Translations under genes and position numbers: made by a program | Notes under the pieces: generated by a model | What the model was told of the DNA's origin: nothing | Databases searched by the model: none | What the model saw: the letters and a program-made list of their open reading frames with translations, nothing else | From: a virus | Taxonomy: Duplodnaviria > Caudoviricetes | DNA: 64,000 nucleotides | Direction: 5' to 3' (one strand) | IMG/VR virus record: IMGVR_UViG_3300028582_000252 | Span: 1-64,000 of that record | Shown here: one piece after another, positions 1-64,000 of the stretch | Layout: each line of letters starts with the position of its first letter | Position numbering within the stretch: position 1 is the first letter of the stretch

Positions 1-3000
1 TTATATTGTAAATGCAAGCTGTCCTTCTTTATCAAGATTAATATTTCCATAAATATCAATCTTTTTATACTTTTCTAAAAATCCATTATACGTAACTTGC
101 CCCTTGAAGAATTTTAATATTTCTGATTCATTGGCATCACAATATTTTGCATTTTCACCGCATTCAACTGATTCCAAATCTGCTATTGTTTCACGCGCAG
201 TTATTTGCTTTCTCTCTTCCGTTGTTATTGGCACCGGGAAAAGGTCTGAAGGTGAAATCTTTATATCGTTCCTTGTGCAGATAATAAACACTCTCTTTCT
301 TTTTTGTGGAACCGCATAATCACTTGCCATCAAGGTTCTACCTTCAGTACTATATCCTAACTCAGTAAATAATTTATTTACTTCTCGATATGTTTTCCCG
401 CTCTGGTAGCTGAGAAGCCCCTCAACATTTTCAAAAACAATAACCTTAGGATTTACCCTTTTTACAATGTCAACAAATTCTCTAAATAGCTGATTCCTAG
501 GGTCATCATCTGCCCTGAACCCTGCCATAGAAAACCCCTGACAAGGCGGCCCCCCGCAAATAATATCTGCATGTCCTTCTTTTGCTGCTTTTTCTATTGT
601 AGCCTTTGTTTCAGCCTTTGTTATATCACCACAAAATACATTTATTTCCGGATTATTAATTTTTAAGGTTGTACAGGCACTTTCTTCAATATCATTACTC
701 AATAATGATTCGATTCCAGCCGCTTTAAATCCAGCAGTCATTCCTCCTGCACCGCAAAACAAATCAATCGATTTTGAGCAACCTGTAATATCCTTTATGC
801 GTGTTCCAATTTGGTAAGCAAGTAACGTTGGTACTGCATTACCAACCTGCTTTAGGCATTGTGTTTTATTTCCATAAAAATAATAATCGTCTTTAAAAGC
901 TTGAAATCTTGCGGCTTCCCTTACTGATAACACCCTCTCATGAACTGGGTGAACATATGTCCCATTACCAGGTCTATTGAAATAGGTTGTTATCGTGTAA
1001 CTAGGTTTTTCATAATCAATTCTTCCATACAGTGTTGTACGTCCACCAGTTTCAGTTATTCTCTTTAGTCTTTTAGATTTATTAACAGTTTCAATAGGGA
1101 TATCTTTCCAGCTACCCCCTTGTGGAACATTCTTTATCATTTCCAAATCCAAGTTGCTTAGTTTGAAAGTCGTATGATTAAGAATATGCCCTTTATACAA
1201 TGCCATAAACTTTGTTGTTATACCTTTAGCCACATTAATTTCAAACTTGCTAAGTCCATTCAAATGATTGTCAAGGCTGATCTCACCACTTAAAATCTTA
1301 TGTGACTCTTCATATTTAATGCCCGTGATTATACACTGTAAAGCATTATAATAATCATTTATACATTTAGTTTCATTCATTTTCTTTTCTTCCGGTTCAC
1401 TTATTATACCATAGGCCTTTTTGGCTAGTAACTCTATCTCGTCAATTAAATTTTCGGTTTCTTCTTTTAAATATTGCTGTGTAAGTTTTGAAATCACCTT
1501 TAATTCAGGCGCTTCAACAGGGATTGGAAAACAATCTATTTCGTAATTGTTAATATGATTATTACTACTAGTCATCTTAAATAGCCAATTAATAATTTTT
1601 GTATTAAACAATCCGAGCAAAGCATAAATGTCTATTTCGTACCTGTTCTGTGAAACAGAAATAAAATTACAAGAGTTGCCTAACACATAGTTACATGGCG
1701 CAAAAGCAAATTTAACTCTTCGCTCTTTATTCATATTTGCAATCTGTTGACAAATAATCCTGTCTTGCTCTATGTAATACTTTTTTGGAGTAGTGGAAAC
1801 AAATTCATTTGACACATAAACTTCTTCCTGGGGGTACAATAGTTTATAATATCCAATATCTCTACCTCTCAATAGTGGATACCCGGTATTACTCTCAACA
1901 ATACTGCCTTTATTTGTAGTTAAATCAAGCTCACCACGTAAATTTACTACGAAATCCAAGTCTTTAACTACCGGGAATTTTCTTAACTTTTTTAATATTT
2001 GATATTCCTCTGCCGATACCGCAATTATCGCATTCCCAGTATTTTCATTAATAATATCGTCAATTGATACTACTGCTACATCTGTTGGCTTTCTATAGAA
2101 ATCTTTAGTAATTATTACAGTTTTAGTTTTTTCACCCTTCTTCAATAGAATTGCACTCAAAGCTTGCTGTGCATCAATAAAACCGCTTCCTTCTTCAATT
2201 ACTTTAACCGAGATTATTTTCATATCTTTTAAAATGTGTGTTCGTAATCTCATGCATGTTTTGTCTGACATTATTGATGAAGGAACAAGCAAACTAATAT
2301 ATGCATGCTCATTTGCATATTGATCAATGATTTCCTCAACAAATAATTTATAAAGATTCAATACACCAGTTGTAGAATATTTAAATTTTCCGGATACAAT
2401 TTTTGATATTTCGGCGTATTTATTCTTATCGCTGTTATGCTCCTCTTCGTTACTATATTGACCTTTTTCAGCTTTCAAGTTCTTATATGGTGGATTAGTT
2501 GCTATTATATCAAATCCATCTTTTACAATATCTGCCGTGAAAACATCATTGATACTAATATACTCCAATGTGGATGATGTAACATCCACTAATAATCCAG
2601 ACCCTATATGCTCCGAGAAATACAAATCTGGTAATTCAATATTCCAAAATGCTAGTGCCAATAGTTTCAATGACTTTTTATACCCTTCAAGTGCATCCTT
2701 ATTTACATCTGCTACATAAATATTATTAAGAAGAATCATTGCTTCATCACTGCTAATTCCCGTATTCCTTACGGCTTTAATATATGAAAAAACAAAGTTG
2801 CCAGCACCAACACAGGGTTCAAAAAAACGATATTGAACTATTCTCTTGTCACTTCTCTTTAGATTATCAACTAATTCTCCCATCATAACATCTGTTAACT
2901 TCAAATCTGTATAGTAGCTTCCCGTTCTTTTGCGAACTAAATCATCCATCTCTGTTTCAATAAATTTACCTCTATTATTCAAGGAAGCCCACATTCCTAT

Positions 3001-7264: not shown

Positions 7265-7441
7265 CTACTCTCCTGTGATTATGAAATGGACATATCCGTC
7301 TTTGTCGTCTTCGATGTAATTGACAAGTTCATACATATCCAGGTCGTATGCGATCTTTTGAACGGCATTGATATCGAACATGTTAGTAAGTCCCGTATCT
7401 CTTACTGCGAGGATCTGCTTCTTTACTTTCTCATTCATCAT
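7265..7441 (-). CDS. DUF5049-like small phage protein
   Basis: QILAVRDTGLTNMFD..VQ..A; paralog of 60020-60205. Confidence 0.8.
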   Translation of the reverse strand: MMNEKVKKQILAVRDTGLTNMFDINAVQKIAYDLDMYELVNYIEDDKDGYVHFIITGE

Positions 7442-7820
7442 CCGTACACACCTCCAGTCCGGCCATAAGGTCGAGATATACGGAAGTGTACCGCGCGCGC
7501 TCACACCCGTCGCAGGCTGCCATTGCCTCAAGGTAAAACGCCTTTGCGTCGTCACGACTGTCCCAGATGTCTGTTCCTCCATAACATATGACAGTAACGG
7601 AATCGAGTATCCTGCAGGTGTCTTCACCGTAGATCACATTAAGGCCGGAGCCGTTGTCCCACCTGACCATGATAGAGCCGGTGTCGTCGACTCCTTTCAC
7701 AGTACCATGTGTGCCGGCAGGAGGTGCCTGCGGATCGTTCATATGTATAAGTTCGACTCTTGCGCCTTCCTTATACTTGTTCCGTATTTCTTTTACCTTA
7801 TCTCTGTTCGGAAACATCAT
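7431..7820 (-). CDS. DUF4314-like phage protein
   Basis: GARVELIHMNDPQAPPAGTHGTV..VDDTGS..V.WDNGSGL; paralog of 60195-60584. Confidence 0.8.
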   Translation of the reverse strand: MMFPNRDKVKEIRNKYKEGARVELIHMNDPQAPPAGTHGTVKGVDDTGSIMVRWDNGSGLNVIYGEDTCRILDSVTVICYGGTDIWDSRDDAKAFYLEAMAACDGCERARYTSVYLDLMAGLEVCTDDE

Positions 7821-8463
7821 GGTCCGCACCTCCTTTGAATGCCGACGATCCGCTGAGTCTCTCAAGCAGGATCTTCCTGTCTGCCTTGTATCCGTCACCG
7901 ATGAATCCCAATTTGAGGAGAAAACATCTGAATGCGTATTTCTGATTACCGGCAGGTTTGTCTTTCGCAGTGATCCGCTTCTGCGCCTTCGCGGTATTGG
8001 CAAGCGCTGAAACGAAATCCGTGTATGCTGTTACGTGTTCCGCATCTATCTTTCCGTTGAACCAGTTGAACGATACTTTATCGCCGCTCTTCTCAAGAGC
8101 AAGGTCGTCCGCGCCGAATGCCGCCTTTATAAGGCTTTCCTTTGATGCGATCAGTTGCTCGAGCTTTTCAAGCTCCTCTTCCGTGAATCCGTGCAGCGGA
8201 AGCGATATGACTATACTGTCCTTCTGCTTGTCCGGCTCACCACCCGGAGCAGTGAACCCGTCTGCGGCCAGGTTGTGCTCAAGACGCTCAAGAGCGTCGG
8301 CATCGTCCGAAATGACCGCGCCATCTCTGTCGACCGTAAAAACTCCGACTGTGTACTCGTATGAAGGTGTCCCTCCATACACCGGTTCGCATCCCGTGAT
8401 CTTTGCTATGGCATCGACCAGGGCCTTTCTTTCTTTCCCTTTTACGCTGTATTCCGCTTTCAT
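7798..8463 (-). CDS. Conserved phage protein (often annotated virulence-related protein)
   Basis: NQKYAFRCFLLKLGFIG..YK.DRKILL..LSGSSAFK; paralog of 60568-61227. Confidence 0.8.
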   Translation of the reverse strand: MKAEYSVKGKERKALVDAIAKITGCEPVYGGTPSYEYTVGVFTVDRDGAVISDDADALERLEHNLAADGFTAPGGEPDKQKDSIVISLPLHGFTEEELEKLEQLIASKESLIKAAFGADDLALEKSGDKVSFNWFNGKIDAEHVTAYTDFVSALANTAKAQKRITAKDKPAGNQKYAFRCFLLKLGFIGDGYKADRKILLERLSGSSAFKGGADHDVSEQR

Positions 8464-8505
8464 TGATCTACCTCCTTGTTTATGAAGCCTTTGTTTTGTA
8501 CATAC

Positions 8506-8535
8506 ATATATCCCTCTAAAAGACACATATAGCAA
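8506..8535 (-). promoter_or_regulatory. Promoter-like motif copy 2
   Basis: Minus strand TTGCTA TATGTGTCTTTT AGAG GGATATAT. Confidence 0.7.
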
Positions 8536-8548
8536 GGTTTATCTCCAC

Positions 8549-10228
8549 TTATTCCGAAGAATCATGTGCGATACCGTAAAGCACGAAATACACGCATGGC
8601 AGCGCAACTCCGTTCCCCCACATTTTGTATTCGGCGGAATCAGAATGCGGATCTTTCAGCCACTTCAATATTTGTTTTTCCGTTTTGGGTTTCTTGTCAG
8701 GTGCCGTTGCTTTTCTGTATTCTTCGAACACATCTGTAAAGAACCGTATCTCTTCATCTGAAGGTTCTTCCGTCCCAAGTCCTGAACACCAACCGTCCGG
8801 GAATCCCTGCAGTCTTGCGCACTCTTTCGGCGTCAGCCGTCTTACGATGTATCCCTTCCCATTTACGAGAGGCGGATCTTTGTAGTCTGTAGCAACGAGC
8901 GTGTTCGCCAGTTCTTTTTCGGCGCTCGTGAAAAACGATGCTTTGCTGCTGCTAAAGTGCGCTACTGCGTTGGGACCTTTAGCGACCATGGTAGGCTCAA
9001 GCTCTTCTTCGACTGCGAATCCGAACTTGGCGTTCTTTCCCTGGTTGAATGCGGCCCTGTCTATCCCGTATGAAGTCTGAGCAATGATGTTCTGCTGCGA
9101 ATCCATGCAGTTCAGCGCACCGGTTTTCTCCTGAAGACCAAGCTGATTGACCTGACCGTTCCCAATACAGTACGGCTCGAACAGCACCTGATCGTTGTTG
9201 CAGCCGAGTGTAGCGGATCTGTCTTCCTGCACAAGAGCGCCCTTTCCACCGCCGGCCTTTCCGCATCTTATTTTCATGGTCTTTGGCGTTTCCATGACAA
9301 GAGGCACGTTGTTGCCGCCTGTCCCCATATGAGATGTAAGAGTCTGTGATTTCCCGTCTGTCCTTACTTTGACCCTGCTGTCCGAAGGATAGTTCTCCAC
9401 GGATACAGCAGACTGCATGATGCATGGCGGATGATTTGATTTGGCCCTGAGTGTGGAAGTCATGTCTTCGGTCACATCCATCCTCTGACCGCCCTGGTCG
9501 TTCAGGCAGATGCCTGCATCATGAGCGCTTCCTTCAATACGTACGGAAGTTCTTTGCCACGGGAGGCTGCTCTTCTCAGTATCCCGTGGCATGCCCTCCT
9601 GCTCAAATAATATTTCTCCGGCACGTCCTCCTCTAAGATCTGCGACAAGGTAGATCCTCTTTCTTCTCTGGGGCACTCCCCAGTACTGAGCGTCGAGAGT
9701 TCTGTAAGCAATGCTCCATCCGTCTCCCACGAGCATGTCTGCGTGCGGCCATTTTCCGTCACAAGGCGCAGGCACCTCGGGCCTGCCTTCTTCACAGATC
9801 GATACGATTTCTTCGAGGACTGCCCTGAAGTCTTCTCCACTGTTGCTGGAGAAAGCTCCTGCGACGTTTTCCCATACGATGTATTTCGGGTATTCTCCAT
9901 TTGTTTTTTCCCTCATTTCTTTTACGATGCGCACGGCCTCATAAAAAAGAACGGATCTTGCTCCGCCCAGTCCTTTACGTCCGCCTGCAAGAGAAAGGTC
10001 CTGACACGGCGAACCGAATGTAATTATATCTACCGGCTCTATCTCAGAGCCTTTTATCTTCGAAATGTTCCCAAGATGCTTCATTGAAGGGATCCTCTTT
10101 GTTGTCACCCTTATCGGGAACGGTTCTATCTCGGATGCCCATATCGGCGTTATCCCGCAGAGCATGCCACCGAGAGGGAATCCTCCCGAGCCATCGAACA
10201 GGCTCCCGAGCGTAAGCTGCTTATTCAC
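8549..10228 (-). CDS. Phage C5-cytosine DNA methyltransferase with a modular variable region
   Basis: SLFDGSGG, GSPCQD, WENV, PQRRKR, RRLTPKECARLQGFPD, YKMWGNG. Confidence 0.92.
   Translation of the reverse strand: MNKQLTLGSLFDGSGGFPLGGMLCGITPIWASEIEPFPIRVTTKRIPSMKHLGNISKIKGSEIEPVDIITFGSPCQDLSLAGGRKGLGGARSVLFYEAVRIVKEMREKTNGEYPKYIVWENVAGAFSSNSGEDFRAVLEEIVSICEEGRPEVPAPCDGKWPHADMLVGDGWSIAYRTLDAQYWGVPQRRKRIYLVADLRGGRAGEILFEQEGMPRDTEKSSLPWQRTSVRIEGSAHDAGICLNDQGGQRMDVTEDMTSTLRAKSNHPPCIMQSAVSVENYPSDSRVKVRTDGKSQTLTSHMGTGGNNVPLVMETPKTMKIRCGKAGGGKGALVQEDRSATLGCNNDQVLFEPYCIGNGQVNQLGLQEKTGALNCMDSQQNIIAQTSYGIDRAAFNQGKNAKFGFAVEEELEPTMVAKGPNAVAHFSSSKASFFTSAEKELANTLVATDYKDPPLVNGKGYIVRRLTPKECARLQGFPDGWCSGLGTEEPSDEEIRFFTDVFEEYRKATAPDKKPKTEKQILKWLKDPHSDSAEYKMWGNGVALPCVYFVLYGIAHDSSE
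9502..9900 (-). CDS. Nested +1-frame ORF inside the C5 MTase (M.EcoHK31I beta-like polypeptide)
   Basis: GAGGG upstream of ATG; STLSQILEEDVPEKYYLS..ACHGILRRA..RGKELP is conserved with 62502-62894. Confidence 0.65.
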   Translation of the reverse strand: MENTRNTSYGKTSQELSPATVEKTSGQSSKKSYRSVKKAGPRCLRLVTENGRTQTCSWETDGALLTELSTLSTGECPREERGSTLSQILEEDVPEKYYLSRRACHGILRRAASRGKELPYVLKEALMMQASA

Positions 10229-11451
10229 TGTGCTGCCTCCTCGTACTTCATTTTCTTGCCGCCCCTTATGAGGATCACATCATCCGAGGCGCCTTTCTGC
10301 TCTATCATGCGGCTCACGACCACGTCGCAGAACTTCTCATCGAGCTCTATCCCGTAGCAGATCCTGTCCGTCTGTTCGCAGGCGACCATGGTGCTGCCGG
10401 ACCCGATGAACGGATCCAGGACTATGCATCCGCTCATTGAAGAATTAACGATAGGATATGCCAGAAGCGGTACCGGCTTCATCGTAGGATGATCGGCATT
10501 CTTCTTAGGCTTATCGTATTCCCAGATTGTCGATTCCTTCCTGCCGCTGAACCATTTATGCTTTCCTTTCTTCTTCCAGCCATAAAGGATCGGTTCGTGC
10601 TGCCACTGATATGGAGACCTGCCAAGAACTAAGCTCTGCTTCTTCCATATGCAGCAGCCTGAAAGATAAAAGCCTGCATCCTGAAAAGCTTTCCTGAAAT
10701 TCAGCCCTTCGGTATCTGCATGGAACACATATATGCTTGCGTCATCAGCCATGACCTTTTCAGTATTAGTGAATGCATCAAGCAGGAACTGATAGAACTT
10801 GCTGCTCCCCATGTTGTCGTTTTTGATCTTTCCTGCGCTGCCTTCGTAGTCGACGTTGTACGGAGGATCCGTTACGACGAGATTTGCTTTCGCCCCGTCC
10901 ATAAGCGCTTCATACATTTTCGGATTTGTGCTGTCGCCGCAGATCAGTCGATGCTTTCCTATGAGCCACAGATCTCCAAGCTTGGTCAACGCAGGCTTCT
11001 TCAGTTCTTCCTCCACATCGAAGTCATCGTCCTCAATGTCATCATCCGTAAGAAGCTTGTTGATCTCGCTGTCATCAAACCCAAGAAGTGATACATCGAA
11101 GTCTGCGCCCTGAAGATCTGAAAGCTCGACCGCCAGCATCTCTTCATCCCAGCCGGCATTAAGTGCCAGCCTGTTGTCCGCGAGGATGTATGCTTTCTTC
11201 TGAGCGTCTGTAAGATTTTCTGCAAACACGCATGGTACGGTTTTGTATCCTTCAAGCTTTGCCGCTTCAATTCTGCCGTGGCCCACGATGATGTTGTAAT
11301 CTGCATCTATTACTGCAGGCGATACGAACCCGAACTCACGAAGAGAAGATCTAAGCTGTGCTATCTGATCCTTGTTATGGGTCCTGGCATTCCTTGCATA
11401 AGGAATCAGCTTATCGATATCCACCTGTTCAAATTTCTTTGTATCCATCAC
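10225..11451 (-). CDS. ParB-N domain + N4/N6 DNA methyltransferase
   Basis: IIVGHGR, LADNR; TDPPY, HPTMKP, LDPFIGSGST. Confidence 0.92.
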   Translation of the reverse strand: MMDTKKFEQVDIDKLIPYARNARTHNKDQIAQLRSSLREFGFVSPAVIDADYNIIVGHGRIEAAKLEGYKTVPCVFAENLTDAQKKAYILADNRLALNAGWDEEMLAVELSDLQGADFDVSLLGFDDSEINKLLTDDDIEDDDFDVEEELKKPALTKLGDLWLIGKHRLICGDSTNPKMYEALMDGAKANLVVTDPPYNVDYEGSAGKIKNDNMGSSKFYQFLLDAFTNTEKVMADDASIYVFHADTEGLNFRKAFQDAGFYLSGCCIWKKQSLVLGRSPYQWQHEPILYGWKKKGKHKWFSGRKESTIWEYDKPKKNADHPTMKPVPLLAYPIVNSSMSGCIVLDPFIGSGSTMVACEQTDRICYGIELDEKFCDVVVSRMIEQKGASDDVILIRGGKKMKYEEAAQ

Positions 11452-12014
11452 TTACCCTTTCTTGACCGAAGCAGCTGCTCCATCATATCGTCCTGCGGAT
11501 TTCCCGTGAACGCCGCCGTGCAGTTCTGCTTTACTATGTCGTATATTTCATACCAAAGCAGATTCGCCTGCTTCTGAAAGGACTGACTCATCTGTACAAA
11601 TGGGCTTGTGATAGCGCCGCCTGTAGTCGGGTGCTTCCCAAGAAGTCCGTATGTGCTAATAGCGTCCTCACACTGTATATATCTTGCGAACGCCTGCGAA
11701 TATCCTTCAATGAGTCTGTTGCTCACGAACTTCTCGCAGCCGCGTTCTTCAAGCCACTTCCAAGTTTCTTTATATATCTCATCCGCGCCGAGCGGTTTAC
11801 CGTCGCGTTGCTTTGCTGACAGGTAGCTGCTCGGGTCCGGCATGTCGCTCCCTTCAAGATCAGCTGGTTCTCCGATGCTTCCCGCTTTGAGTTCAGTCAC
11901 CGGAAGCTCCATGATCGTAGCCGGCTTGCCTTTGCTGATCTTATCCGCCAGGGCCTCCGGTTTATCGCCTGCCCTGACTCTTCTGCCACCCCTGTTAGTC
12001 ATATCTTTTGCCAA
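11448..12014 (-). CDS. terS: Terminase small subunit (P27 family)
   Basis: NRGGRRVRAG.KP, KHPTTG..I.SPFVQM; directly downstream of HNH and the cos-like region. Confidence 0.8.
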   Translation of the reverse strand: MAKDMTNRGGRRVRAGDKPEALADKISKGKPATIMELPVTELKAGSIGEPADLEGSDMPDPSSYLSAKQRDGKPLGADEIYKETWKWLEERGCEKFVSNRLIEGYSQAFARYIQCEDAISTYGLLGKHPTTGGAITSPFVQMSQSFQKQANLLWYEIYDIVKQNCTAAFTGNPQDDMMEQLLRSRKGK

Positions 12015-60205: not shown

Positions 60206-60584
60206 CGTCAGCCACCTCTGCTCCCGCCATCAGCTTCATATATATCGCGGTGTATCTTGCCTGCTCACTGCCTTCGCTCATCGTCATGCCCTCCAGGAAA
60301 AAGGCAAGCGCCTCGTCCCTTGAATCCCACATCCGCTCTTTTCCGTAACAGATGGTGGTGACCGTGTCGAGTTTCCGGCAGAAGTCTTCTCCGTATACCA
60401 CATTGAGTCCGCTGCCATTGTCCCATGCAACCATTACTGACCCAGTATCATCGACACCCTTGACGGTACCCTTTGTGCCTTTAGGCGGTGCCTGCACATC
60501 ATCCATATGCACAAGTTCCACTCTTGCGCCTGCCGGATATTCCTTTTTTACCTTTTCGACAGTTTCTCTACTTGGAAATCTCAT
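60195..60584 (-). CDS. DUF4314-like phage protein
   Basis: Paralog of 7431-7820. Confidence 0.8.
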   Translation of the reverse strand: MRFPSRETVEKVKKEYPAGARVELVHMDDVQAPPKGTKGTVKGVDDTGSVMVAWDNGSGLNVVYGEDFCRKLDTVTTICYGKERMWDSRDEALAFFLEGMTMSEGSEQARYTAIYMKLMAGAEVADDDE

Positions 60585-61227
60585 CGTCAGCGCCTCCTTT
60601 GAATGCGGATGAACCGCTCAGTCTTTCAAGCAGGATCTTCCTGTCTCTTTTGAAGTCGTCGCCGATGAATCCAAGTTTCAGCAGGAAACACCTGAATGCG
60701 TATTTCTGATTGCTGACCGGCTTATCCTTTGCGGTGATCCTCTTCTGCGCCTTTGCGGTGTTCGCAAGTGCCGAAACGAAATCAGTGTAGGCCGCGGCAT
60801 GATCTGCATCGATGGTGTCGTGGAACCAGTTGAATGATACTCTGTCATTGTCTTTTATCAAGGTAAGGTCATCTGTGCCAAATGCCGCTTTGATAAGGCT
60901 TTCCTTTGATGCGATGAGCTGTTCCAGTTTATCCAGTTCCTCTTCTGTAAAGCCTGAAAACGGAAGCGATATGACTATATCGTCCTTCTGCATTTCAGTT
61001 CCGTCATCCGAAGCCATGAATCCGTCTGCGGCAAGGTCCTGCCTGAGATGGTCAAGTGCATCCGCATCATCTGAAATTACCGTGCCTTCCTTATCGACAG
61101 TGAAATCACCGACCGTGTACTCGAATGTCGGCGCTTTTTTGTACTGAGGTTCGCATGCCGTGATCTTTGCAATAGCATCGACCAGGCTCTTCCTCTCTTT
61201 TCCCTTTAAGTTATATTCTGCTTTCAT
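60568..61227 (-). CDS. Conserved phage protein (virulence-related annotation)
   Basis: Paralog of 7798-8463. Confidence 0.8.
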   Translation of the reverse strand: MKAEYNLKGKERKSLVDAIAKITACEPQYKKAPTFEYTVGDFTVDKEGTVISDDADALDHLRQDLAADGFMASDDGTEMQKDDIVISLPFSGFTEEELDKLEQLIASKESLIKAAFGTDDLTLIKDNDRVSFNWFHDTIDADHAAAYTDFVSALANTAKAQKRITAKDKPVSNQKYAFRCFLLKLGFIGDDFKRDRKILLERLSGSSAFKGGADDEISK

Positions 61228-61271
61228 TGATTTTACCTCCCTGCTTTTGCAGCCTTTCTTTTTGTACATAC

Positions 61272-61301
61272 ATATATCACTCTAAAAGCCACATATAGCA
61301 A
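61272..61301 (-). promoter_or_regulatory. Promoter-like motif copy 5
   Basis: Minus strand TTGCTA TATGTGGCTTTT AGAG TGATATAT. Confidence 0.7.
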
Positions 61302-61314
61302 GGGTTATCTGCAC

Positions 61315-63219
61315 TTATTCCGAAGAATAATGTACGATGCCCGCAAGCACGAAACAAACATTCGGCAGAGCAACACCGTTGCCCCACATCTTGTATTCCG
61401 CCGAATCAGAATGCGGGTCTTTCAGCCACTTCACTATCTGCTTGTCCGTCTTTGGTTTTGATGCGCCGGTCACTATGACTCTGTGTGTTTCAAAGACCTC
61501 TCTCCAAAACCGGATATCCGCCGCAGTCACATCTTCCGTCCCGAGGTCACTGCACCACCAGTCCGGGAATCCCTGCAGCCTTGCGCACTCTGTCGGTGTA
61601 AGTCTTCTTACGATATATTCCGTCTCGTTCACAAGCGGCGGATCCTTATAATCTGTCGCAACCAGTGTTCCCGCCACATCCTTTTCCGCTTTCATGAAAA
61701 AAGATGCCTTGTTAGCAGAATACCTCGGCTGAAACAATGTCTGGTCGTTATTGCATGACAGCGTTGCCGACTTATCATTCTGGATAAGCGCGCCTTTGCC
61801 TCCGCCGTCCTTTCCTGAACGGATCTTCAGTGTCTTGGCTTCAGCGACTGCGCCCGGTCCTCTCGCAACTATGGTAGGTTCTTTTTCTTCTTCGACAGCA
61901 AAATCATACTTTGCATTCTGTCCCTGATTGAAAGCCGCACGGTCTATGCCGTATGCAACGGCATGCCTGTCAACAGTGTTCAGGGTATATCCGGTCTTTT
62001 CATTTACTCCGTCACCTTTTGGACCGTTCCCGTCTTTTCTTCCTATCATGGAACCCTGGACTGCGACTACTGCCATCCCGCCCTGACAGCATGCCGGATT
62101 GCCGCCTCCCGTGTCTATGGTGCGTGAAGTCTCCGCCTCATATATACCTGACTTCGGATTATCAGATCTCATGGAATTGCTGCCGTCCGAGCAGATCCCG
62201 AACACCTGCATCGCCGCCGGCACAATTCCTGCCCTGAGGGTAGGCGATTTTTCTTTCTCATACCCGATGCTCCGGCTTTTTTCAGAATGCTCCGTGCAGA
62301 AACCTGCTGACTGCATAACGAGCGGCTGATTGTTCCCGCCTGTCCCGAATGTTGCAAGCACAGTCTGTGATTTACTTAGCGGTCCCGTATACCTTGAATC
62401 CTGCGAATGGTTCTCGAAAACCAGCGGCGGATGATTAGCCGCGGCGCGAAGCGTTGCAGTCATATCCTCCGTCACATCCATTCGCTCTCCGCCCTGATCG
62501 TTCAGGCACATGCAGCCTGTGATATCAGCGCTTTTTTCAATACTTCCGGCAGTTCTTTGCCACGCTTTGAAGCCCTCGTGAGAATACCCTGACACGCCTT
62601 CCGACTCAAATAGTATTTTTCCGGCACGCCTTCCATCAAGATCTGCGACAAGGTAGATACGTCTTCTTCTCTGGGGCACTCCCCAGTACTGAGCATCGAA
62701 TGTTCGCCATGCGATGGAGAGATCATCTCCCATGATGCATCCTGACCTGTTCCATTTTTCAGGAGCAGGAACTGATATGTCTGCTGATTTGATCCGTGCG
62801 ATCTCTTCAAGGACTGCCCTGAAATCTTTTCCTTTGTTCGAGGAGAACGCTCCTGTGACGTTTTCCCACACGATGTATTTCGGATATCTTCCATCGGTTT
62901 TCTCCCTCATTTCCCTGACTATCCGGACGGCTTCATAAAAAAGCACTGACTGTTTCCCCGTCAGTCCTTCTCTTTTGCCTGCCACGGACATGTCAGTGCA
63001 TGGCGATCCGAATGTGATTATGTCAACCGGCTCTATTTCAGAGCCTTTTATCTTCGATATGTCTCCCAGATGTTTCATGAACGGGATACGCTTTGTCGTT
63101 ACCCTTATGGGAAACGGCTCTATCTCCGATGCCCATACCGGTGTTATCCCGCAGAGCATCCCGCCGAGAGGGAATCCCGCTGATCCGTCAAACAGACTTC
63201 CAAGCGTCATTTTGCACAT
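61315..63219 (-). CDS. Phage C5-cytosine DNA methyltransferase with a modular variable region
   Basis: SLFDGSAG, GSPCTD, WENV, PQRRRR, RRLTPTECARLQGFPD, YKMWGNG. Confidence 0.92.
   Translation of the reverse strand: MCKMTLGSLFDGSAGFPLGGMLCGITPVWASEIEPFPIRVTTKRIPFMKHLGDISKIKGSEIEPVDIITFGSPCTDMSVAGKREGLTGKQSVLFYEAVRIVREMREKTDGRYPKYIVWENVTGAFSSNKGKDFRAVLEEIARIKSADISVPAPEKWNRSGCIMGDDLSIAWRTFDAQYWGVPQRRRRIYLVADLDGRRAGKILFESEGVSGYSHEGFKAWQRTAGSIEKSADITGCMCLNDQGGERMDVTEDMTATLRAAANHPPLVFENHSQDSRYTGPLSKSQTVLATFGTGGNNQPLVMQSAGFCTEHSEKSRSIGYEKEKSPTLRAGIVPAAMQVFGICSDGSNSMRSDNPKSGIYEAETSRTIDTGGGNPACCQGGMAVVAVQGSMIGRKDGNGPKGDGVNEKTGYTLNTVDRHAVAYGIDRAAFNQGQNAKYDFAVEEEKEPTIVARGPGAVAEAKTLKIRSGKDGGGKGALIQNDKSATLSCNNDQTLFQPRYSANKASFFMKAEKDVAGTLVATDYKDPPLVNETEYIVRRLTPTECARLQGFPDWWCSDLGTEDVTAADIRFWREVFETHRVIVTGASKPKTDKQIVKWLKDPHSDSAEYKMWGNGVALPNVCFVLAGIVHYSSE
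62502..62894 (-). CDS. Nested +1-frame ORF inside the C5 MTase (M.EcoHK31I beta-like polypeptide)
   Basis: GAGGGAG upstream of ATG; conserved with 9502-9900. Confidence 0.65.
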   Translation of the reverse strand: MEDIRNTSCGKTSQERSPRTKEKISGQSLKRSHGSNQQTYQFLLLKNGTGQDASWEMISPSHGEHSMLSTGECPREEDVSTLSQILMEGVPEKYYLSRKACQGILTRASKRGKELPEVLKKALISQAACA

Positions 63220-64000
63220 CTCTGCCCTCCACTTCTTTTACAAGGTCAGCATACGGTATCCTGCTTCCGTCCCTGATGCAGAAGATGTCTGCTTCATCTT
63301 TCGTATCTTCCGCGTACCTTCTCAGTATCACCGATGCGTATTTCTCATCGAGTTCCATCATGCAGCATATCCTGTTCATCTGTTCACAGGCCATCATCGT
63401 GGAACCGCTGCCCCCGAATGTATCGAGCACTATGCCGTTCTCCTGCGATGAGTTCCCTATCGGATATGCTAAAAGATCAAGCGGCTTCGATGTCGGATGG
63501 TCACTGTTCTTTTTAGGCTTGTCATAATTCCATATGGTGGTCTGTTTCCTGTCCGAGTACCATCTGTGTTTTCCGTTCTGAAGGAATCCGTAAAGGACAG
63601 GCTCATGCTGCCACTGATAATCCGAGCGCCCGAGTACCAGGCTGTTCTTCACCCAGATACATACACCGGCAAGGTGGAATCCGGCATCGATGAATGCTTT
63701 CCTGAATACCAGTCCTTCGGTGTCTGCATGGAATGCGTATGCGCTGCCTCCGTTTTCAAGCTGATCCGCCATGTTCTTGAATGACTCGAAAAGGAATGTA
63801 TAGAAATCGTCACCTTTCATGGAATCGTTCTGTATGGTGAGTCCGCTGCTGCTCTTGAATGAAACTCCATACGGAGGATCAGTCACAATAAGGTTCGCTT
63901 TCTTTCCGTCCATGAGGGTCTTCACATCATCCCCGTTCGTTGCATCACCGCAGTACAGCCTGTGTCTCCCGACGAGCCACAGGTCACCGCGTTCCACGAA
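63188..64000 (-). CDS. N4/N6 DNA methyltransferase (5' part outside the window)
   Basis: TDPPY, HPTSKP, LDTFGGSGST. Confidence 0.9.
   Translation of the reverse strand, partial: FVERGDLWLVGRHRLYCGDATNGDDVKTLMDGKKANLIVTDPPYGVSFKSSSGLTIQNDSMKGDDFYTFLFESFKNMADQLENGGSAYAFHADTEGLVFRKAFIDAGFHLAGVCIWVKNSLVLGRSDYQWQHEPVLYGFLQNGKHRWYSDRKQTTIWNYDKPKKNSDHPTSKPLDLLAYPIGNSSQENGIVLDTFGGSGSTMMACEQMNRICCMMELDEKYASVILRRYAEDTKDEADIFCIRDGSRIPYADLVKEVEGRDVQNDAWKSV

Follow-up and report, generated by a model that had tools for sequence, protein, structure and literature searches.

The 64,000-nucleotide window analysed here (positions 1 to 64,000 of the IMG/VR virus record IMGVR_UViG_3300028582_000252, Caudoviricetes) is part of an 84,151-base provirus record and contains two paralogous C5 cytosine methyltransferase genes, both on the minus strand, each of which carries a second open reading frame (ORF) in the +1 frame. 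Nested ORF A (9502..9900, minus strand; 132 amino acids plus stop) lies inside methyltransferase gene A (8549..10228), and nested ORF B (62502..62894, minus strand; 130 amino acids plus stop) lies inside methyltransferase gene B (61315..63219), as a first-pass annotation of this DNA had described. Both appear in the ORF list, and homologous ORFs are found at the place equivalent to A; the two nested proteins are 63% identical. We regard the nested frame with high confidence as a real gene. The reading that we favour, with a probability of roughly 0.6, is a two-chain methyltransferase in which the nested small chain acts as a helper. We infer that the nested ORF is translated, that its product binds the main chain, as structure prediction suggests, and that the activity of the main chain depends on it.

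The main-frame proteins (A, 559 amino acids; B, 634 amino acids) are 55% identical and were recognized from their ORFs and their matches to PF00145 (E 2.4e-41, 142.7 bits, for A; E 7.7e-41, 141 bits, for B; curated cut-off 22), and in the case of A also from its motif residues. Both are arranged in a single frame as motifs I to VIII, a string of modules resembling target recognition domains (TRDs), and motifs IX and X. Motifs I (F.GSGG), IV (PC), VI (ENV), VIII (QRR.R), IX (RRLTP.E) and X (GNG) occur in the usual order, the motif names (I-X) being those of the literature on the C5 methyltransferase family, and the C5 motif residues are invariant in the alignment of relatives (A1).

Selection in the nested frame

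The part of nested ORF A that is conserved in its own right is the C-terminal stretch of residues 79-132 (GSTLSQILEEDVPEKYYLSRRACHGILRRAASRGKELPYVLKEALMMQASA; 9505..9666, minus strand), which was delimited by entropy periodicity, substitution classes and database matches. The conserved tail follows the pattern STLSQIL..VPEKYYLS..AC.GIL.RA..RGKELP..L..AL..QA over about 50 residues and is not present in the main chain; read in the main frame, the DNA of 9505..9666 encodes a poorly conserved linker. Between the two paralogs the nested segments ACHGILRRAASRG and ACQGILTRASKRG are identical at 9 of 13 positions, whereas the main-frame readings of the same DNA, MPRDTEKSSLP and VSGYSHEGFKA, are identical at 0 of 11, exactly the strings and counts that had first drawn attention to the locus.

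Codon periodicity was determined as the mean column entropy by main-frame codon position in 33 non-redundant sequences (<90% nucleotide identity). Entropies at positions 1, 2 and 3 are 0.48, 0.37 and 1.07 before motif VI and 0.63, 0.51 and 1.09 from motif VI to motif VIII; in the 40 codons after motif VIII they are 1.15, 0.59 and 0.55. Over the 40-50 codons past motif VIII the wobble moves out of the main frame into the nested one, and it is the third nested codon position that varies freely.

Substitutions were classified in 16 phylogenetically independent pairs, all of them fused forms, with sequences down to 64% nucleotide identity. Upstream, 300 changes are silent in the main frame and change the nested protein, 146 are of the opposite kind, 172 change both proteins and 17 are silent in both. 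After motif VIII the corresponding numbers are 60, 170, 99 and 6, a reversal between the two regions with an odds ratio of 5.8 (Fisher p 1e-24). Mean pairwise amino acid identity is 0.70 for the main and 0.51 for the nested protein upstream, and 0.55 and 0.78, respectively, after motif VIII. The proposal that selection acts on the nested frame is supported by all three measures. In elements related to phage P1 substitutions are few and run in the same direction (main-silent to nested-silent 19:6 upstream and 3:7 after motif VIII), and the tail is also strongly conserved in a diverse proteobacterial and actinobacterial set (see below), from which one short locus was set aside for this measurement. 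Judged by these substitution patterns, selection on approximately 150 bases falls chiefly on the second frame, and the first still reads through them, a natural case of long-term dual coding.

The whole of the nested ORF had originally been taken as conserved. This holds for the tail of about 50 residues; the first 75 or so residues shadow main-frame motifs VI to VIII. Nested GKTSQE is motif VI (WENV-AG) read in +1, nested ECPREE is motif VIII (GVPQRR) read in +1, and the LTLFDLD-type heads of the nested ORFs of relatives are FIRPRY read in +1. Because these residues are +1 readings of conserved main-frame motifs, we judge the N-terminal 75 or so to be by-products, with an independent signal only in the last 50 or so.

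Conservation of the open frame

Relatives were collected from 80 viral contigs with related genes, two phage records and 80 species-genome loci, the sampled loci being picked by similarity to the nested or the main protein; 594 of 600 candidate species-genome stretches were confirmed. Around motifs VI to VIII, all 84 loci examined have a +1 frame free of stops over 133-146 codons, compared with 17-68 codons for the +2 frame, and each has a homologous nested ORF at the same place. At all 160 contig and genome loci the conserved tail is read in +1 relative to the main frame. As for the possibility raised at the outset that the nested frame is often interrupted in homologs, it is intact in 159 of the 160 sampled loci (158 anchored loci and L099) and interrupted only in L119.

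When the main frame was reshuffled synonymously in 32 loci (a set that leaves out L051, where the main frame is broken), the share of trials that left the nested frame open had a per-locus median of 6% and mean of 10%, with values from 0 to 41%. In 29 of these 32 genes the nested ORF is the longest open stretch in the +1 frame; the other three main ORFs hold longer ones of 211, 165 and 157 codons. L051 retains an intact nested ORF beside its broken main frame (159 amino acids), and at another locus, L017, the main ORF stops at 297 amino acids.

The nested layout extends well beyond the relatives of this provirus. A tblastn search with the tail matched 134 of 50,697 phage records. In phage P1 (L175) the match lies in the +1 frame of dmt, in an ORF of 162 codons (2162..2650 of that locus); in Vibrio phage CP-T1 (L176) there is a +1 ORF of 153 codons (1728-2189) in gp12, and in mycobacteriophage Omega (L177) one of 157 codons (1704..2177) in gp127. 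None of the three is annotated. Of 81 P1-like loci, 80 keep 163-166 codons of the frame open. A second, diverse set comprised 80 proteobacterial and actinobacterial loci, of which 72 have the complete tail pattern; in 71 of these 72, motif VIII is found in the -1 frame just upstream of the tail, and in none is it in the same frame. As far as these searches reach, the nested layout is widespread in phages and rarely annotated.

Some of these phage loci have features of their own. The P1 record itself grades the C5 activity of Dmt merely as "perhaps". In Omega (L177, 1529-2833) the methyltransferase is divided between gp127, with motifs I to VIII, and gp128, with the TRD and motifs IX and X, in the same frame with a stop between them; together with the nested +1 ORF this makes a three-piece layout. 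In Mycobacterium phage Thibault (L178, 323-2124) an HNH endonuclease gene, gp103, interrupts the C5 gene right after motif VIII, which could represent an intron or a homing-endonuclease insertion, and gp104, annotated as an 81-amino-acid hypothetical protein, is the nested-frame tail.

Start signals of the nested ORFs

Nested ORF A begins with an ATG (9898..9900, minus strand) formed by the main-frame codons AAT GGA (Asn-Gly). Nine nucleotides before it, at 9910..9915 on the minus strand, the TGA that closes the +1 frame upstream (9915-9913) overlaps a GAGGG (9914-9910) resembling a Shine-Dalgarno (SD) sequence, and both fall within the main-frame codons GAA ATG AGG (E-M-R). In copy B an SD-like GAGGGAG (62902..62908, minus strand) lies 7 nt before the nested ATG (62894-62892), so that the SD-like sequence reported earlier is present upstream of both starts.

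In the relatives the nested ATG is likewise formed from a main-frame Asn/Asp-Gly pair (AAT GGA or GAT GGA); of 158 loci, 146 have ATG at the start position and the remaining 12 have GTG. In all 32 non-redundant cases with Asn or Asp at this position the codon is AAT or GAT, compared with gene-wide frequencies of 50% for AAT and 57% for GAT; the 33rd non-redundant sequence has GGT GGC here, yielding GTG. The main-frame GAA ATG AGG is invariant ten bases 5' of the nested start, and its Arg codon is AGG in 157 of 158 loci, although AGG makes up only 17% of the Arg codons gene-wide. These constraints on silent sites at the AGG and Asn/Asp codons argue for separate initiation of the nested ORF; by the codon counts, GAGG and ATG are kept through synonymous codon choice.

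Split and frame-switched relatives

A HMMER search with the 57-residue tail against 1.84 billion representative proteins gave 2892 matches at E<=1e-3, and 266 database proteins were classed by motif patterns. Of these, 116 are small ORFs, and 60-63 are of a beta type in which TRDs and motifs IX and X continue the frame of the tail. The corresponding gene arrangement is seen at locus L083, where an alpha gene of 229 amino acids has motifs I to VIII and stops about 30 codons past motif VIII. The beta gene of that locus (590 amino acids) is in the +1 frame, starts at the equivalent ATG just after the equivalent TGA, overlaps alpha by 371 bases and spans the tail, then the TRDs and motifs IX and X. 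In such split alpha/beta relatives, the homolog of the nested tail belongs to the N-terminal part of the beta chain. By this homology, the window genes are a re-joined form, in which the alpha frame crosses the overlap as a linker into the TRDs and the beta frame ends after the tail.

A form with motif VIII and the tail in cis in one frame was sought among the 266 database proteins, and only P0245 fits, as a truncated frame-switch product; P0260 had also been picked up, through a false match of the search pattern. In P0262 and at locus L085 (1625-2560), the C-terminal end carries a motif I (TLGSLFDG.GGF) after motif X and in frame with it; the form may be circularly permuted, or the frame may read through into a second methyltransferase gene.

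Fold placement and predicted complex

Two monomeric enzymes, E. coli Dcm and M.HhaI, carry the post-motif-VIII element in cis, in a single chain, and the tail can be placed on it, if weakly. An hhalign comparison put nested residues 58-110 on Dcm 285-336 (TLAQLLDPMVEAKYILTP...), immediately past Dcm motif VIII, with a weak pairwise E of 0.006. For the compact beta chain P0031 (261 amino acids, 49-row alignment), AlphaFold2 gave a predicted local distance difference test score (pLDDT) below 50 for residues 1-71 and of 85-96 over the tail (residues 80-130), modelled as a helix (79-82), a strand (around 92) and two helices (95-108 and 114-125); motifs IX and X are confident too. When Foldseek candidates were re-aligned, this model from residues 70-77 onward fell on M.HhaI from residues 185-190 onward (Z 2.7-3.1); it also aligned with Dnmt2-type enzymes (Z 4.1-4.7) and with a Dcm-like structure from Shigella.

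Main chain A and nested chain A, each with its own alignment (A1 and A2), were then co-folded, as had been suggested with the original observation. The interaction prediction score from aligned errors (ipSAE) was 0.79, 0.73 and 0.75 (median 0.75), and the three controls, two unrelated partners and one unrelated main chain, all gave 0.00. Of 80 solved complexes 58 reach the calibration mark, as do 2 of 110 mismatched pairs, counts that apply only roughly to predictions from own alignments. The runs agree in at least 65% of contacts, with a partner pLDDT of at least 66. Predicted contacts join nested residues 85-99 to main residues 460-473, in motif IX, the tightest being those of nested Tyr-Tyr-Leu 97-99 with main Val-Arg-Arg 462-464 and of nested 88-90 with main 469-473. 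The KYYL strand of the nested chain is thus predicted to sit on the strand and helix of motif IX of main chain A (residues 460-473, YIVRRLTPKECARL; 8810..8851, minus strand), a docking site that coincides with invariant columns of A1. Together with the beta-chain homology of the tail, the predicted complex supports the earlier suggestion that the nested product is a second methyltransferase chain.

A two-chain methyltransferase and its alternatives

We propose that each prophage C5 methyltransferase gene encodes two proteins. The main frame would give the long chain with motifs I to VIII, several TRD modules and motifs IX and X, a chain that would be without the short element found after motif VIII of ordinary C5 methyltransferases, at the beginning of their small domain. 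This missing element, a helix (LSQIL), a strand (KYYLS) and two basic helices (AC.GILRRA..RGKELP..L..AL), would be written in the +1 frame past motif VIII and produced as part of a protein of about 130 residues initiated separately at the conserved ATG behind GAGG. Its first 75 or so residues would be an unselected and probably disordered by-product of motifs VI to VIII, and its last 50 or so would fold and pack on the motif IX strand of the main chain, giving a two-chain enzyme.

Several observations weigh against this proposal. For a subunit it is unusual that some 75 of the 132 nested residues are by-product and show no sign of folding. In L119 a stop interrupts the nested frame 5 codons ahead of the conserved part and leaves the main ORF intact, and one of the 81 P1-like loci has a shorter nested frame. 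The SD spacing in copy A, 9-10 nt, is rather long. Pfam searches with the nested proteins found nothing beyond a chance-level match to DUF4333 (E 0.18), and the Pfam match of natural fusion or beta proteins does not reach into the tail; a profile search of the sequences of solved structures returned only a chance match to a Fab (E 0.77) and no solved relative. The probability that hhalign attached to the Dcm match is 6%. Foldseek found nothing in the PDB for the beta-chain model at E<=0.001, the best entry being the Shigella Dcm-like one at E 0.37, and the structural alignment scores are low (at most Z 4.7), though the register is consistent. The AlphaFold2 model of the main chain alone is poor (mean pLDDT 49; residues 211-486 below 50), so that it offers no usable structural view of whether the main chain lacks the element. 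The complex score is a measure of model confidence, and since monomeric enzymes hold a like element in cis, a pass may reflect likeness to monomeric C5 folds and speaks for fit to the missing place, not for binding. Finally, in about 51 of the 266 database proteins the nested tail is fused, at differing positions, behind an N-terminal methyltransferase. These fusions could represent another expression route, or only errors or pseudogenes, and we read them as the latter.

The alternative that takes the fusions at face value is a +1 ribosomal shift between motif VI and the end of motif VIII, giving a truncated chain (motifs I to VIII plus the tail, approximately 240-260 amino acids) instead of or besides the small protein. 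These database proteins (e.g. P0245, P0205, P0053, P0159 and P0225) are the one observation in its support; its product would also avoid a useless 75-residue head. However, the fusions arise from frame changes at the DNA level at many places, right after motif VIII in P0245 (239 amino acids), at motif VIII in P0205 and between VI and VIII in P0053, P0159 and P0225, and such varied switch points fit one-base losses in a gene whose +1 frame is open. A ribosomal shift would have no need of the conserved ATG or GTG (158 of 158), of the AGG (157 of 158) or of an open frame upstream of motif VIII, all of which are kept, and the sequences inspected show no conserved slippery site. We consider such a shift improbable. 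A separate search for a -1 slippery site before the nested stop, allowing a return into the TRD frame, showed none conserved in 33 sequences, and a frameshifting review (PMC5009743) contains nothing relevant. In P0053, P0083, P0086, P0159, P0188 and P0225 the frame switch falls at a run of Gly codons (GGG/GGGG), which could reflect homopolymer sequencing errors, pseudogenes or phase-variable tracts.

Somewhat less improbable, yet still unlikely in our view, is that the nested product is translated and acts apart from the methyltransferase, for instance as a small basic protein that binds DNA or RNA and regulates the module, or as a factor countering host defence. The tail is basic (RRA..RGK), the nested protein has neither a Pfam family nor a solved relative by sequence, and our literature search found no functional test of any member of the family. 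Such a role would leave the position of the tail unexplained: it is always at the same place in a C5 methyltransferase gene (160 of 160 and 71 of 72 loci), aligns to the part of Dcm and M.HhaI that follows motif VIII, is a covalent N-terminal part of the chain with TRDs and motifs IX and X in the split relatives, and is predicted to dock on motif IX. That the nested frame is untranslated, being either a relic of a recent conversion from split to fused form or the trace of a constraint on DNA or RNA, seems highly improbable. Fused and split forms clearly interconvert, but the selective signal was measured in fused forms only, between sequences as distant as 64% nucleotide identity, and recurs in the P1-like elements (19:6 and 3:7) and in the diverse proteobacterial and actinobacterial phage set; a constraint on nucleotides would neither set the variable site at every third base in the nested register nor favour nested-silent changes 170:60.

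Relation to known systems

The closest tested precedent for a chain nested in another frame is M.EcoHK31I of E. coli HK31 (YGGCCR), a C5 methyltransferase of two polypeptides (PMC2836561, PMC3404938). There, too, the second chain is encoded wholly inside the gene of the large chain in another frame, as at 9502..9900 and 62502..62894 in the window, and the first 42 residues of its beta polypeptide are dispensable (PMC2836561), a parallel to the by-product head of the nested ORFs. The difference lies in what the small chain contributes. In M.EcoHK31I it carries motif IX, and the large chain has motifs I to VIII, X and the TRD (PMC2836561); in the window, motif IX (YIVRRLTPKECARLQGFP) is encoded in the main chain (residues 460-477 of A), the nested chain lacks it, and the latter bears the element that follows motif VIII. 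The first-pass annotation had rightly noted that the main chain keeps motif IX and that the role of the nested chain may therefore differ from that of M.EcoHK31I beta. M.EcoHK31I has been tested in vitro and in vivo, whereas the window system is known from sequence and prediction.

M.AquI (CYCGRG), as described in PMC3404938, is composed of alpha and beta chains split in the variable region, the larger with motifs I to VIII and the smaller with the rest and motifs IX and X. L083, with its alpha chain of 229 and beta chain of 590 amino acids, shares this division of motifs. In contrast, the window main chains hold motifs I to X, and only the short element past motif VIII is left in the second frame.

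The nested ORF is not wholly new, since two annotations already record it. Streptococcus phage MM1 (AJ302074.2) has ORF14 ("putative methyltransferase", 141 amino acids) annotated as nested in +1 within ORF13 ("putative DNA methylase"). It matches the window nested protein with 41% identity over 34 residues (SLSDILEEEVDERYFLS, the LSDILEE..Y.LS part; pairwise E 4e-6). The window ORFs share its layout, lying in +1 over motifs VI to VIII and ending about 50 codons past motif VIII; unlike them, ORF14 ends soon past the KY.LS strand and is without most of the basic helices. The PHROGs family phrog_16143 ("DNA methyltransferase") matches nested B (E 4.2e-5), nested A (E 9.9e-4, borderline) and the Omega nested ORF (E 5e-11). 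Both are annotations, not functional tests. The expectation that standard annotation would miss the nested gene is thus mostly correct, as in P1 dmt, CP-T1 and Omega, but does not hold for MM1 or for PHROGs. A literature search, whose coverage did not extend to the MM1 paper or to supplements of any paper, found no paper describing or testing the nested ORF, and a restriction-modification review (PMC12707154) mentions P1 dmt only for its Dam function.

Genomic setting

The two methyltransferase genes belong to paralogous modules about 53 kb apart, both on the minus strand (7431-12014 and 60568-64000). Each module consists of a gene for a ParB-like/N6-type methyltransferase followed by the C5 cytosine methyltransferase gene, plus a conserved protein of about 240 amino acids. 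In copy A, 4 bases (10225-10228) are shared by the start of the C5 gene and the stop of the methyltransferase gene upstream of it. The pair of modules may represent two related prophages in tandem.

Implications

Taken further than the two window genes, the findings lead to a broader proposal, which we hold more tentatively, at slightly less than even odds: a large and old clade of phage C5 methyltransferases, in phages of Firmicutes, Proteobacteria (including P1 Dmt), Actinobacteria and cyanobacteria, would be obligate two-chain enzymes in which two consecutive elements of the fold are encoded in two frames of one DNA stretch. The strand and hairpin after motif VIII would be in frame 0, and the helix, strand and helices that follow in frame +1. 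If this is true, a gene annotated as "methyltransferase" would, without its small chain, give a product that is inactive or altered in specificity, which would matter for all work on these genes by methylome analysis or heterologous expression.

Should the small chain prove necessary, thousands of "DNA cytosine methyltransferase" entries from phages and prophages would cover just part of an enzyme, recoded (codon-optimised) clones of the annotated coding sequence would silently lose the partner, and predictions of phage self-protection against restriction would need to be revisited. The nested layout comes with an easy genetic handle and is present in well-known models, among them P1 dmt and the streptococcal prophages.

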